Source: Spizellomyces punctatus DAOM BR117 (taxonomy: Eukaryota). Taken from it: a stretch of DNA of 64,000 nt. Numbering within the stretch: the first letter of the stretch is position 1; the number at the start of each line of letters is the position of its first letter. The translations under genes and the position numbers were made by a program. The stretch lies in assembly GCA_000182565.2 (NCBI GenBank), contig KQ257452.1; one strand, written 5' to 3'. Below, piece after piece: positions 46,789 to 62,300 of this stretch. The notes beneath the pieces were generated by a model. The model did not search any database. It was not told the DNA's origin and saw only the letters and a program-made list of their open reading frames with translations.

Positions 46789-47165
46789 GCCATTTCGCTA
46801 TGGTTGGATCGGTCGTGGTAGGAAGTCTTTTTCCCTAGCTGGACTGGATGGTTCCTCAGTGCAGTCTGTTCTTATGAGTATCTTGGATTACGACGTATTT
46901 GTGACTTTTGTAAACTTTGATGTGCCCTTTGGCTTCTGTAAATACACTGCTCATGTTGTTCTAGAACAAATCTTTACTAGATTTTCCTTTTTTCAGACCA
47001 GAAGTGTTACTATCTGCCAAAACCTGTCAATTCAGACCCGGAAGAGGCTTAGCTTCTTGTACGTAATCTCCTCCATGGCAACAAAATCACAGTTCCGATT
47101 TCTCCAAAAGCAAGCAGCAAACTTCCCTCACCTTAAGTTCTTTACAAGTTTCAACACATTCCGAC

Positions 47166-47516
47166 ATGCTTGCACCAATTGTCCGCCGAACGGCTGCAAC
47201 AGCCTCCCGAACAGCTACTCCCCTCCTCCGACTTGCGCCCACCGTCCGCCCCACTCTCACATCAATCCCTTCAGCGATCCCGTCCGCCAGTTTTGCAGCA
47301 GCGTCCGTCCCTTCAAGCACCCCAGCAGGGACAGGATCCGGTTTGGTCGCAACCACACAAACCGTAAGTGATCATAAATGATCAGATCTTGTGTACCAAT
47401 GCAGTCCTCACTCTGATGCTCTTACACAGAAAACCGGATCAACACATTCGGTAGGAGCTTTTCGCGCACGGGGAATGCACACTTTCACTTCCTGGCTTGT
47501 AGAAGACGATACGTAA
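47166..47516 (+). CDS. 94-aa presequence-like microprotein ending WLVEDDT-stop (alternative spliced stop at 47854-47856)
   Basis: Exon 47166-47363, canonical 66-nt intron (gtaagt...ctgat...cag), exon 47430-47516; R/S/T/A-rich with no acidic residue until the terminal EDD. Confidence 0.7.
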
Positions 47517-48006
47517 GTGACTGGACAAAATAATGGGGGCACCTCGGTGTTCAAGTACGGTGCACAAAGTGCTTGTAATGACGTGAACAATCCCGTACCG
47601 CGGCCCCCTGGTGTCGTTTCTTCTTTTTTTTATGTATTGCTTTTTCAAGCGCCTAAAGATGCCTCCCTCCCCCTCCTCCATTTCACTTACACTCCGTGCC
47701 ATCCACATAAAAAACGGTTCGTGTTGTATTTTCCCTTTTTTTGTGGTACGGCTCCGTAGAAGGTGGGTGCGGGGGTAATATCCTTGCCACCTTCTCAAGT
47801 CTTTTTTGCATCTCAAGTTTTTTTCTTAACCATTTGTTGTGTTTGGGCTCAGATAAGCTGATTCCGGTTCCCATCAAGGTTGTGATTGGGTTTGGCGCGG
47901 GTGGTCTTTTAGAAAGTGAGAAGACGCACGGACGTTCCGAGGTTTTCAGGTTTCTGAGCATAATATATATTGTCTACTGTGTCCATCATAAACCCTGTAC
48001 AGTATT

Positions 48007-49892
48007 CTAGTTGACTGTAATGGCAGATCCGACGCTTTTGCGAAAAGCGGTTGCGAGCGCCTGAAATCTATCCAATTCCTTCCTTTGTATATCTGCACCA
48101 TCATCAATCTCGCCAATCAAGGTGCTCTCCGAATTGTCACTCGCTGGTTCTACACTATGCGCGACTTTCTCCGCCTGTTCGTCCATGGCGTACGCAAAAA
48201 TGCGCTCTTCTACTGAATACGGATCGATGGTGAAGTTTGCTACTAATATAAACAGAGACTGTTCCAGTCGAATCGATAGGGACCCCATCCACAGCTTCCA
48301 CCTGATCGACAGTCTTTGTGGACGCGATGGCTGATGCATATGAGCAAAACCAGGATAACTGAACGGCGATATCACCTTTTTTGTCTTTGGACATTCTCTA
48401 GGTTCGGCCGACATTGGCTGTCTCCCTTCACGATTGCCCTCTTTGGAAAGTAGCATTCCCAAAAACCTCTCCAGATCACCCTTTGTACACGTCCAATCAC
48501 CTCGAACAAAACTGTGTCCCAGCCCTCGACCAACGTCGTCTCCTTCCAATACAAGTGTCGTGTAGAATGCAGGTGATGTCACATGAACTTTGATCGGAGG
48601 AGACCCGGCACCACCGTGCAAAGTCGTATATGAAGGCCTGCCCTGCTCATATACAATTAGACTGGTGGAATGTCCCTCTGCCTGGATGTGGAAATGATCA
48701 AAGACTGTCCGTCGACAAAACCTAACAGAAATGGTAAGACAACAAATCTAGTATAATGGATCAAGTATGGGCCACTCACGTTTGGAAATTGTTCAATCGC
48801 TTCCATACCATGCCTCGTCCGTCTTTAGGTACCCTCATGGGACTCGGTCTTTGATAGATTTTCATTCGTTTTCGGTACGCAAGGATCCACGCTTGCCGGA
48901 GAATCCTTGGGAAGGTCAAGAATGCGGTCACAGGGTATGTGACAAGAAGATAGGCACATGTACGTGCGTCGAGAGCGTATGCATCACCCCATACTCGTGC
49001 TGTAAACCATAATGGCTTGGAAAGTCCTGCCAAAGATGCATCCGTGTAATTTTTGATGTTGAGTAGGACGTCGAGTGTCTTGTCTGGGTGCTTGAAATGG
49101 GCTTCATAATTGCCACTACGGTTATTAAAAGGAGAGACATGAAAGGATCGATCTATCGAGTGACTATAATCATATCTGCCAATGGACAGAGAATATGAGC
49201 ACATTTGATAATTAGAGGTTACGGCACCTCTTCCTTACCCAGGGGCACTCTTCACACGGTTCTTTTCACAGCAAACGTACACATGGCGTTCACCAAACGT
49301 ATTGTTCACCTCCAAGATGACTGCGTGGACATTTGACGGGGTGGTGGAGGAATAACAAAAGTAAACGCTAAGGGGATTAAATGCATAGCCCAACACACGC
49401 GGTGTTGTTACTAGTTCGATAGACCCGATATCCGAGGTTGAGATTCCCTATCAAAGGAGTTACTAAAATACTCATAAACATACTTGAGCCTTTTCTTTGA
49501 CTCACCATACTTGCCAATAACTCAAGCACACGCTGTTTCAAACCTAACCCAAACCCTTGCTTCCTGCCATCCCCACCGCCTAGATAGTCGCCTTCTCGCA
49601 CCGCAAAAAGCCCTCTCTCCCACCCAGCTAACCACCAGGGTACATTGAAATCCTCACCCAATTTGACTCGAAAGTAGAAAAGTGGGTACTTGAATGCATG
49701 CCGAACGGGATGGTATCGGACGTGATGGGTTTGTACAATGTGGATCTTGTGTTGTATGCTGGTGATAGTGTTTCTGCACAGTGGCGTTAGACGTATGTAT
49801 TGGACAGAAGCACCAATGAGAGCAAGAAGAAGAAGAATGAGCAACGAGATCTCTAGTGAGAATGACATTGTCATTGGGGGAGGATTCTTCAT
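48007..49892 (-). CDS. DUF1365-family protein with N-terminal TM segment
   Basis: HVRYHPVRHAFKYPLFYF; TTPRVLGYAFNPLSVYFCY; ILEVNNTFGERHVY; RSFHVSPFN; TFPRILRQAWIL. Confidence 0.88.
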
Positions 49893-59300: not shown

Positions 59301-62300
59301 TGTGGATGTCGCCCAAAGTGCGATCGTCGACATACAGAGCCACGCGCTGTTCTTTACATTTTTCCCGTAGCTTTTGAGCCTGTCCAGCATAGGGCGTCAG
59401 AACCGCAATCTGACCACGCGCATAGCCCTGTTTGATCAAATGACCCACAAGCGCAACGACCATGCTTGCTTCGCGTTCATTGGCCTTCGACCTCGATTCT
59501 CCTTCTTTTCCACCTTCCTCAAGATAGTCATGGTCAAAGAACCAGAGATTTTGGCGCATTCCTTTTACAGCGGGATAGTTGAACACATTATCTCCATCTT
59601 CAAGGACAGGATAATATTTGGTCTTTCGCAGCAAATCAGCAATTTCTGGTCTCATTCGTCGTTGAGTAGCCAAAGACACCATAGGAACGTTACGCTGAGC
59701 TCCCTTTGGCCGATTGTTGCTCAATCGAACCAGTCTCTCAAAAAGTGACATGTCCAGATTGTAGCCCGAACGCGCATCGACCGAAAGGGCAAACTGCTCC
59801 ACCTTGGGCCTCAACTGCTGATGATCACCAATCATGATCAAATGCTGAGTTCCTTGGCTAAGAGAGGCAATGATATGGGATTCAAACACCTCCCCGGCTT
59901 CCTCACACATGACGATGGAAGGCGCCAAGTTGCGTAGCAATTTCATTTTGGAAGCTGCACCAGACGTAGTTATGCCCACGACTTTGGCATCACGCAAAAT
60001 GCGTCCCTGCGTGGCAGACGACAGGTCGTTGTACTCTTCCACGAGTTCGCTGTACTTCTCGCAGTCTCTTTTAAACTCTCCTATGCGTACCGTCATATAC
60101 TCCTCTTTCCAGTAGTTGAACAGCGTCATACGCTCCGCACGCGACATCTTCCAAACATCGGAATCATATCTAAGGTCCTCAAGATCGCGAGTTTGCTCTG
60201 GGGGTAAAGCAATGGCCGCTCCCTCATCTCCATGTTTGACCACAGGTACAAGATTAGGGTAAAGAATTCGTTCATCACCGTCGTCTTCGATGCTTAAACT
60301 CGAAAATGCATTCTGCGTGTCAAATTGGCCACTGTTAATCTCGTGCGATTGACTTCTCGCTACTTCATACGAACGGTGCTCAAGATCAAGGCCTCGAACC
60401 CATATTTGCAAGGCATCCGTGTGCTCCCCCTCGGTTCCCAAAAAGCGTCGAAAGCCATCCTCGTCCACAAGCATTGATCCCCGCCGTAGATTTTCCAACT
60501 GCTCGGGACTGTACAGTTCCAACAACGTTACGAGATTCTCGAGTCGCCATTTGTGAGGTGGCAGACCTTGTCGTTCAACAAACTGATCGATCTGTCGGCT
60601 TAAGTCTCCCGCCTCCACCTCAATGTTTTTGGACCTCTTGATCTCTTGTGCAGTTCTTGCACCATACATTAAATTGCCCAAATTGCGCTGCTCTAGCTTC
60701 ACACTTCGGCTCCGTCCTCCCACACGAATAATGTCGTCGGCGGGCACACCAGCATTCATCAAGCCCTCTAAGAACTGATCCAGGGCGTGATTTGTGTAGC
60801 AAATGCAAAGAATGGGTAGATTGGCAAAGTACGCATCCGCTCCAAGAGTGGGTGTGACACCGGCCGCTCGCTGCATGGCAGCTTGAAGGTGCAATGCCTC
60901 CGCTTGAGGGGATCTACCTGCCGATGGGATAGTCCGAGACTTTCCAATATTTGCCAAAAGAGCCTTTATAATGTGTATCCCCACGTGGGTTTTTCCACAT
61001 CCGGGCGGGCCTTGTATGAGACTGATCTCTTGCGACAGCGCGGCGGCCAGAGCTTCACTTTGCGTTGCATCGAGGTCCAAGTAGCGTTGATAGCGGTGCA
61101 GGGTGTGTCGCAGAGAATCAAAATCTGCAACATTTACGCTTTGGAGCCCCGTAACATTGTCCGTCCCAGCTTTCAGCAAGCACCGAAGATCATAGCACGT
61201 CCCTATATTCAAGTATCGAGGGTGTTTGGGTTCCAAGTTGCCCAACACAATGGTTTCCACAAAGGGCATTGTCGAGCTACTTAAGGACTGAAGGGCCTTC
61301 AGAACCGCTTCACCTGCATTGAAGAAATGGCCTCGTACTTGCAGTAGCAAGTTCTCATCCTGTGCCTCCTGGCGACCTACATGGTCGGACACTACATTTA
61401 TGAGCTGAGAAAAGTCCAACAATTGCAGTCCGATCTGCGGTCGTTTTTTTGGTTCTTTTTGAGGTTTTACCTCCAGATCTTCGTCGTTTCGCTCTGCAAC
61501 CACGGCGAAAAAGATTTTTCTCTGGGCAATCGGCTTGTTTTTATTGATATCTTGCTTTGCGCCGAGCCATAACACTATCAGCGACCCTTTCTGCACGTGC
61601 TTCTTACCCGGCCCTTTGGTCCAGTAAAGTCGATCAGATTTTGCATGGGCAGGTTGGTCAAAAGAGACTTTCAAGAGAAGTCCTCGCCTAATATTTGGTG
61701 CTAGAGATTCGATGGTTGCACGACGGAAGACCACAAGATCAACTGAATTCTTGCCGTCCACCCGATAGAAAGTGCCATTACTACCAAGGCGCTTCAGAAC
61801 TTCATTTCCATTTTGGACAAAGTATGAGATACCGGCCCGTACAGACGCCAATACATCTTCCCTGAGTAGACGAAATTGAATATCCAAGTATCGGTCCACT
61901 CCTTCCGGCAAATGGTGCTCGACGCCGGGTTTTGGTAAATAGGGACTATCTTCAGCAAAAATCTCACCGGATGTGGGAAGAATGCAAATCTTCCGGAAGT
62001 CTGAAAAATCATTGTCATGACGTGGGCCCTCTGGACGCAAATCACCAGGCCCAGGACCTGATGATCTCTGATCTCCTGCAGATGCAAGTGTTCCTCTGCT
62101 ACCCATGCCTGCTTGTCGATGTAACCAGTCAGAAGTTCCTTGTTCAGCTGTAGCTAAGTTCTCTTCAGGCTCCAGAAGGATGTTACCAATGTTCTGCAGC
62201 AAATGTGACGGAGAGAAAGCATGAATAAATAATCAAAGGGACAAGGCTCATGACGTTTTCGCAAACCAGACCTTTAGCAATTTTTTAATTTCGCTTTTCG

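Follow-up and report, generated by a model that had tools for sequence, protein, structure and literature searches.

Can an intron that interrupts the last codon of a gene add a single residue to the end of a protein? The question is raised by a small plus-strand gene of the chytrid Spizellomyces punctatus DAOM BR117, which lies in a 64,000-nt stretch of contig KQ257452.1 (GenBank assembly GCA_000182565.2), here termed the window. Two coding exons of this gene are followed by a 340-nt terminal intron, whose donor overlaps the stop codon, and by a last exon that carries another stop codon and the 3′ untranslated region (3′ UTR). An initial annotation, made from the letters of the window, had placed a candidate exon of three bases, AAG, within the terminal intron and proposed that regulated splicing switches the end of the protein between ...EDDT and ...EDDTR. 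RNA reads show that the AAG junction is made, and that messages ending EDDTR-stop and EDDT-stop are both produced in the same RNA run. The reading favoured here, which is probable rather than certain, is that splicing takes out the intron in two pieces, 247 and 90 nt long, on either side of the 3-nt exon, and that the extra Arg is near-neutral. The elements concerned are the following.

47513..47759, + strand: upstream intron, 247 nt, with donor GTAAGT and acceptor CCGTAG; use of the acceptor is deduced from the AAG in the reads
47760..47762, + strand: 3-nt exon AAG, giving Thr-Arg-stop; defined by joint reads and an overhang consensus
47763..47852, + strand: downstream intron, 90 nt, with donor GTGGGT and a G-rich start, CTTAAC at 47825–47830, and acceptor CAG

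At the sequence level, the last codon ACG (47511–47513), the stop TAA (47514–47516) and the donor GTAAGT (47513–47518) overlap, and retention of the intron reads ...EDDT-stop. The acceptor CAG that follows CTTAAC (47825–47830) has its last base at 47852, with A TAA coming next (47853–47856); a direct splice 47512>47853 would read ACA TAA, which is again EDDT-stop. Between the two sites lie, in order, a pyrimidine run (47729–47742), CCGTAG (47754–47759), AAG (47760–47762) and GTGGGT (47763–47768). Inclusion of AAG turns ACG TAA into ACA AGA TAA, that is, EDDTR-stop. The initial annotation had described the overlapping stop and donor, the distal acceptor and the AAG site with correct positions and readings throughout. 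The 9-mer CGTAAGTGA is identical at the terminal-intron donor and at the verified donor of intron 1.

Sequence features of this kind can arise by chance, and the region by itself is only mildly unusual. CCGTAG-AAG-GTGGGT (47754–47768) is the sole AG-NNN-GT within the 340-nt intron, and its AG and GT flanks are canonical. A motif AGNNNGT is present in 62%, and the stricter YAG-NNN-GTRNGY in 2.7%, of 20000 composition-matched shuffles of the intron interior. Any phase-2 intron that starts with GTAA gives an in-frame TAA upon retention, and the stop codon over the donor is therefore unremarkable. The intron is 340 nt long vs 66 nt for the verified neighbour, and the shortest introns that could join reading frames elsewhere in the window are mostly 47–90 nt; the earlier statement that it is several times the local norm agrees with this, the factor being about four to five. 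It was also stated that GTGGGT donors are used elsewhere in the window. There is one candidate for such use, a putative 69-nt intron on the minus strand (59380–59448) that would join two open reading frames.

The RNA evidence comes from one run (X5) of raw stranded reads with the same species label and a length of up to 60 letters. The sample consists of 26.4 million records, about 6% of the run, and 697 reads fall on 47000–48000, 582 of them at least 99% alike; sense is given by first mates on the + strand. Joints were listed from three reads upward, and an unlisted joint is one with fewer than three reads. In three DNA-like contig sets (X1–X3) there are 0 differences from the window over 47000–48000, so additional AAG letters in RNA are not a genomic variant in that sample.

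The donor that overlaps the stop codon is in use: 47512 is the precise point at which at least 24 reads depart from exon 2. A joint recorded as 47512>47851 with one extra A is carried by three reads, which have three start places and at least 21 letters on the shorter side. Since nucleotides 47851–47852 are AG, this joint spells AC-AAG-ATAAG, which is the predicted microexon junction. Independent of these reads are 18 short overhangs behind 47512, with the consensus AAGATAAGCTGATCC (agreement 0.64), the first 13 letters of which are those of the microexon form. By letter count, rival products would agree with this consensus at about 0.2–0.27, which points to about half of the 18 reads as being of the microexon form. 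The microexon form thus appears to make up approximately half of the products of donor 47513.

The downstream intron is seen spliced separately as well. Joint 47762>47853 (listed as 47760>47851, with the cut moved by +2 to give GT..AG) has three reads at three places, with at most 25 contiguous upstream letters, and it shows that the donor GTGGGT at 47763 and the acceptor at 47852 are in use. The joint 47512>47760 by itself is unlisted, and the upstream intron is seen removed only within the double junction. Reads entering at 47851, 24 in number, have a mixed consensus, which combines the exon-2/AAG form with a form contiguous with ...GGTACGGCTCCGTAGAAG. The joined AC-AAG-ATAAG 27-mer does not occur in the window at up to four mismatches, and the flanking 25-mers are unique there.

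Thus, the junction foreseen in the initial annotation is present, in three placed reads and in the consensus of 18 overhangs, and at least 24 spliced reads and two endings stand in place of an unspliced or single invariant message. How the EDDT end is produced differs in part from what had been proposed. Splicing to 47852 does occur by way of AAG, but the direct joint 47512>47853, which was to give EDDT-stop, has fewer than three reads. EDDT-stop is made instead through 47512>47858 (GT..AG, three reads), and the acceptor at 47857 that this joint uses had not been anticipated. In this acceptor AG is at 47856–47857, the exon starts at 47858, and the joined codons read ACC TGA. Also unforeseen was that donors at 47717 and 47763 are joined from longer upstream pieces.

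The two acceptors are 5 nt apart (47852–47861: CAG then A TAA, AAG then C TGA), and each is followed by one base and a stop codon, which gives the same protein end. The chance that two given acceptors both meet a stop in this way is about (3/64) squared, a figure computed post hoc. More generally, the acceptors tried in this region lead to a stop within 0–2 codons, with the exception of 47658, 47759 and 47762 and of three never seen used; those at 47658, 47759 and 47762 would add 4–16 residues, and candidate acceptors at 47649 and 47878 would reach a stop after one further codon. The 47878 acceptor (EDDTL-stop) is without support in the X5 reads. Loose ends were found before 47857 (15 reads) and before 47878 (11 reads); these match no recognisable upstream exon and were discounted as evidence for acceptors.

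Full retention of the intron looks rare. Depth over four bins after the donor is 9.7, 5.3, 2.2 and 0.4 (the fall from 5.3 to 0.4 is across 47544–47645) vs 95 in exon 2, although a dip in depth is weak evidence. Further downstream, depth rises again within the intron.

~47646-47762, + strand: internal expressed stretch, which ends at donor 47717 (ACG then GTTCGT) or at donor 47763

The depth of the internal stretch is 16–34 (47646–47747) vs 0.4 just upstream. It is spliced to the last exon by joints 47716>47853 and 47716>47858, with three reads each, from the unforeseen donor ACG-GTTCGT. A joint into its 5′ side, those from 47512 to 47650 or 47659 included, is unlisted in X5. The 5′ end may be a candidate acceptor, TTTTTCAAG followed by C at 47649/50, which has a long pyrimidine tract, or it may be an internal transcription start. 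The depth of the last exon (128–136) is about that of exon 2 (95) and the internal stretch (34) added together, a comparison confounded by the 3′ bias of the library. Taken together, the unlisted exon-2 joint and this sum of depths slightly favour a separate intron-internal transcript over an alternative exon. A scan of 47000–48100 against Rfam (E up to 10) gave one meaningless match, with 14.9 bits vs a gathering score of 55; thus no small nucleolar RNA or other known RNA accounts for the internal expressed stretch. A perfect 10-nt inverted repeat, TTTTTTATGT and ACATAAAAAA (47626–47635 and 47705–47714), flanks the candidate internal exon 47650–47716. This AU-rich repeat is positioned as if to loop the segment out, which may be chance.

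How might the terminal intron be processed? The AG-AAG-GT site would let the 340-nt intron leave in two shorter steps, of 247 and 90 nt, in a window where the norm is about 50–90 nt. The splice sites on the two sides of AAG are three bases apart and cannot be engaged together, and removal would therefore be sequential. The commonest single product would then be ...EDD-Thr-Arg-stop, with the stop codon starting one base into the last exon. On a minor route AAG would be skipped through the acceptor at 47857, and retention would be rare; both give Thr-stop. The U-rich tract ahead of the acceptor and the start of the downstream intron, GTGGGTGCGGGGG, resemble the helper motifs of plant microexons. 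Every ACN codon specifies Thr, so the conserved protein stays intact however the region is spliced, and the extra Arg can be taken as a tolerated by-product. That it is such a by-product, and not a designed switch, is most likely.

It should be pointed out that several observations weigh against this proposal. Everything comes from one RNA run, sampled at about 6%, and each alternative joint class has exactly three reads, which is the listing threshold. As many as 653 of the 697 reads fit only partly, and there are 77 further classes of loose ends, so the isoform shares are rough. Among the 24 reads entering at 47851, the form contiguous with upstream sequence (...CCGTAGAAG followed by ATAAG) is at least as common as the microexon form, which is thus no overwhelming majority. 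Reads with the downstream intron alone removed are seen and reads with the upstream intron alone removed are unlisted, which leaves the order of the two steps unproven; moreover, the upstream-contiguous reads may derive from the intron-internal transcript and not be splicing intermediates. The neutrality of the Arg is an assumption, and the invariance of EDDT in three species could equally mean that the end of the protein matters.

Three other explanations can be set against removal in two steps around a near-neutral codon. The least probable is that the junction is an artefact of misalignment, of a paralogous locus or of a strain difference, and that the true mRNA is 47512>47853 or 47858. Only three junction reads are fully placed, the reads are at most 60 letters long, and uniqueness was assessed over the 64-kb window, a part of the genome. 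However, these reads begin at three distinct positions and extend for at least 21 letters on their shorter side, an independent set of 18 overhangs has the same 13 letters in its consensus, and the joined sequence is absent from the window, with DNA-like contigs that carry no insertion at the acceptor. AAG also has canonical AG and GT flanks, the GT being separately seen in use, whereas a cut at 47850/51 would require a TC acceptor and an untemplated A. It is unlikely, although less so than any other alternative to the proposal, that the region is a 3′ UTR splicing module, in which the choice of route sets the level of mRNA via nonsense-mediated decay and the change of residue is incidental. 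The geometry typical of such decay is a stop codon that precedes the last exon junction by more than about 50 nt. Exon 2 joined at 47650 would end EDDTA-stop, and routes through the internal exon would stop at TAA 47653–47655, at 60 or 106 nt 5′ of the last junction, while the productive routes put the stop just past the last junction. The internal stretch has roughly a quarter to a third of the depth of exon 2 or the last exon, it is spliced to the last exon, and at 47649 there is a good candidate acceptor whose pyrimidine tract is long. On the other side, the link to the coding exons is only putative, with no listed joint from 47512 to 47650 or 47659; the last-exon depth fits a separate start at least as well, within the limits set by 3′ bias; and junction-dependent decay in this organism is itself putative.

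The proposal of the initial annotation, a regulated change of one residue, is distinctly improbable as well. Here AAG inclusion would be controlled, perhaps by a 9-bp hairpin, and the alternation of EDDT and EDDTR would toggle a C-terminal recognition or stability signal.

47758-66 with 47787-95, + strand: perfect 9-bp inverted repeat, AGAAGGTGG and CCACCTTCT, with a 20-nt loop

Such a regulated exon would accord with the coexistence of both message types in one sample, and with the invariance of EDDT in three genera, where E-D-D provides the sole acidic residues, so that a terminal Arg alters the one charged patch. The perfect inverted repeat sits exactly on the microexon, and its pairing could take in the acceptor AG, the AAG itself and GTGG of the donor that follows. 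The two acceptors, with a spacing of 5 nt and a stop codon one base beyond each, perhaps also look like selection for an exact tail when AAG is skipped. But regulation cannot be read from a single RNA run, the protein forms are known here from messages alone, and at least six junction types of similarly low count look more like noisy splicing. The 9-bp hairpin, a candidate governor of AAG inclusion on the basis of its position, is statistically weak: the local fold of 47740–47815 has z −2.0, and 9 of 200 shuffles fold equally well. The fold of the whole intron (z −1.33, equalled in 12 of 100 shuffles) indicates no global structure. As for the stop-adjacent motif that was to be switched, none was identified. 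The peroxisomal targeting pattern PTS1 is (S/A/C)(K/R/H)(L/M), and by inspection the tails -DDT, -DTR, -DTA and -DTL do not fit it; nor does -DDTR, and no known motif fits either tail. Still more doubtful is the narrower form of this idea, in which the hairpin gates the one-residue change and an Arg beside the sole acidic patch would alter the stability or a C-terminal interaction of a presequence-bearing protein. If true, an early-diverging fungus would have a protein switch of codon size that is gated by structure. The two-step removal of the intron, with an extra Arg that is tolerated, remains the preferred explanation for the junctions seen.

The remainder of the gene is well defined. It starts with ATG at 47166 on the + strand and encodes a product of 95 residues.

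47166..47363, + strand: coding exon 1, 66 codons, basic and without acidic residues; supported by translation, homology and RNA depth
47364..47429, + strand: intron 1, 66 nt, GT..AG, phase 0
47430..47512, + strand: coding exon 2, encoding the conserved tail ...GAFRARGMHTFTSWLVEDD and the first two bases of the Thr codon
47853..47992, + strand: terminal exon, with stop TAA at 47854–47856 and the 3′ UTR; poly(A) site near 47992

Sense-strand RNA depth begins in bin 47136–47169. Splicing of intron 1 is documented by 14 joint reads 47363>47430 with seven start places, and the depth of its interior is 0. Exon 2, with a depth of 62–95, translates as KTGSTHSVGAFRARGMHTFTSWLVEDD, followed by AC. The terminal exon has a depth of 110–136, and in 27 reads a loose end of A's follows 47992; this marks the poly(A) site and agrees with the + strand as the sense orientation. 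The first 40 residues of the product contain five R/K and no D/E, and acidic residues occur in the whole protein only as the E-D-D of the tail. From its composition, exon 1 may encode a mitochondrial-type presequence. Antisense reads (first mate on the − strand) were also observed at 47918–48000, with a depth of up to 16.6 over the last ~75 nt of the 3′ UTR; they show that the transcript of a convergent neighbour overlaps the gene tail to tail.

The gene is real and conserved in the Spizellomycetales. A HMMER search with the contiguous 44-residue frame that holds exon 2, against 1.84 billion representatives, found four proteins at E ≤ 0.001. Two of these, P0003 and P0004 (888 and 1665 residues, with six and seven matched stretches), were dropped since they are internally repetitive and match through an S/T-rich stretch. 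The two that were kept match exactly the 28 residues of exon 2. One is from Fimicolochytrium jonesii (P0005; XP_052921211, 184 residues); it has 79% identity over the 28 residues and ends ...FTSWLVEDDT. The other is from Powellomyces hirtus (P0006; KAI8919254, 268 residues), with 71% identity over the 28 residues and the reading ...FTSWLMEDDT. Exon 1 shows 52% identity to the N-terminal part of the P. hirtus protein, and tblastn of both proteins against the window gives E values of about 1e-16 across both exons. The tail is thus ...HTFTSWL(V/M)EDDT, with its last four residues invariant in three genera.

The P. hirtus protein continues past ...EDDT for 164 residues (105–268), which are unlike anything in the window. 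This tail is probably an annotation artefact that results from an intron at the same spot. When this tail is compared with the window by tblastn, the matches are weak and not collinear, and they were taken to be chance. In the F. jonesii model, an N-terminal extension of 51 residues precedes the Met aligned with the start of the gene described here.

Other searches returned little. Word-indexed protein searches gave three candidates for exon 1 (lengths of 36–116 residues) and one for the 44-residue exon-2 frame (longer proteins), none of them significant, and 23 for residues 140–184 of the F. jonesii protein, among which the F. jonesii protein itself was the only match. There is accordingly no model of this species' own protein, and no further family member, in those collections. 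In Pfam no family was found for exon 1, exon 2, the frame of the last exon or the two relatives, the best match being Mucin-like at a sub-cut-off E of 0.096, and the ESM Atlas gave no usable match. From the sequence collections searched, the family appears so far to be confined to the Spizellomycetales. A pattern scan of metagenomes gave nine matches, of which one passed tblastn (L001, 1501–1545); this is a bacterial NuoL/ND5-type sequence and was set aside as a chance match. The subunit in question (Pfam PF00361, PF00662) shares the 9-mer GVHTFTSWL with the conserved tail of the chytrid protein, a coincidence recorded because the latter has a candidate mitochondrial-type presequence.

Exons of only three bases have precedents in fungi, plants and animals. 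For Coprinopsis cinerea, 26 genes with a total of 27 exons of 3 nt have been reported, and exons no longer than 3 nt occur in 89 gene models; the same source describes fungal microexons as barely studied and missed by annotation (PMC12230235). As in that fungus, the 3-nt exon of S. punctatus lies between two canonical introns and is absent from gene models in the collections searched. In contrast to the C. cinerea exons, it is in a chytrid, it is the penultimate exon and encodes the last residue only, and its skipping keeps the frame; it is alternative and not needed for an intact protein. What is particular here is a penultimate exon that encodes only the last residue, the harmless skipping and the chytrid host. 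A full-text search of the literature, with relevance judged by title and abstract, found no report of a chytrid microexon.

Plant microexons offer a mechanistic parallel. For these, consecutive intron removal has been proposed, usually with the downstream intron first, and U-rich and G-rich intronic motifs are enriched adjacent to the exons (PMC8831610). The exon here is likewise too short for both introns to be engaged together, a U-rich tract precedes its acceptor and a G-rich sequence follows its donor. Reads with only the downstream intron removed are seen here as well, although these may stem from the intron-internal transcript. Exons of 1 nt have been reported in APC11 of Arabidopsis (PMC4674806) and in CYP621A of Fusarium (PMC12940212). 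These and the plant microexons are mostly conserved and frame-essential, whereas one residue is added here. Recursive splicing through RS-exons also removes a long intron stepwise, by way of an internal AG...GT site (PMC6224609). There the exon is usually removed again or is of zero length and the introns are tens of kilobases; in the 340-nt intron of S. punctatus, the three bases between AG and GT stay in the mRNA.

Alternative splicing that modifies a protein end is known from MDH2 of Yarrowia lipolytica, where alternative 3′ splice sites give C-terminal isoforms, one tail being a peroxisomal signal with localisation shown (PMC3372373). Both there and here, alternative splicing of the last intron alters only the extreme C-terminus, and here too two mRNA isoforms encode different C-terminal residues. 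In contrast to MDH2, neither tail in S. punctatus matches a known signal, and it is a 3-nt exon, instead of a shifted acceptor, that brings about the change. A microexon switch in Xlr2 of Trichoderma virens alters the presence of a DNA-binding domain and is described as glucose-responsive (PMC11121469). It is similar in that an alternative microexon in a fungus gives two protein forms; the difference amounts to one residue here.

Of interest also is that a three-base exon predicted from raw sequence proves to be used in a chytrid. The locus adds a small conserved gene that has no protein entry for this species in the searched collections, and it suggests that gene models of relatives are wrong at this spot, one of them with a 164-residue tail past EDDT. 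If the host is transformable, the locus would offer a compact system for experiments: a single donor, two acceptors, the 3-nt exon and a candidate hairpin. Such a system bears on the handling of splice sites only three bases apart by a spliceosome that works by intron definition. By mass spectrometry, the protein forms ...SWLVEDDT and ...SWLVEDDTR would be easy to distinguish.

One further observation concerns the region upstream of the gene. At 47067–47090, about 80–100 nt 5′ of the ATG and outside the sense RNA coverage, the stretch around CCATGGCAAC is partly palindromic. Read in either orientation, it gives matches to the N-terminal extension of the F. jonesii model (PWQQN/PWQRN and VILLPWRR/VLLLPWQR), which suggests a putative conserved DNA element and not coding sequence. 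The stretch presumably resembles an RFX X-box half-site.

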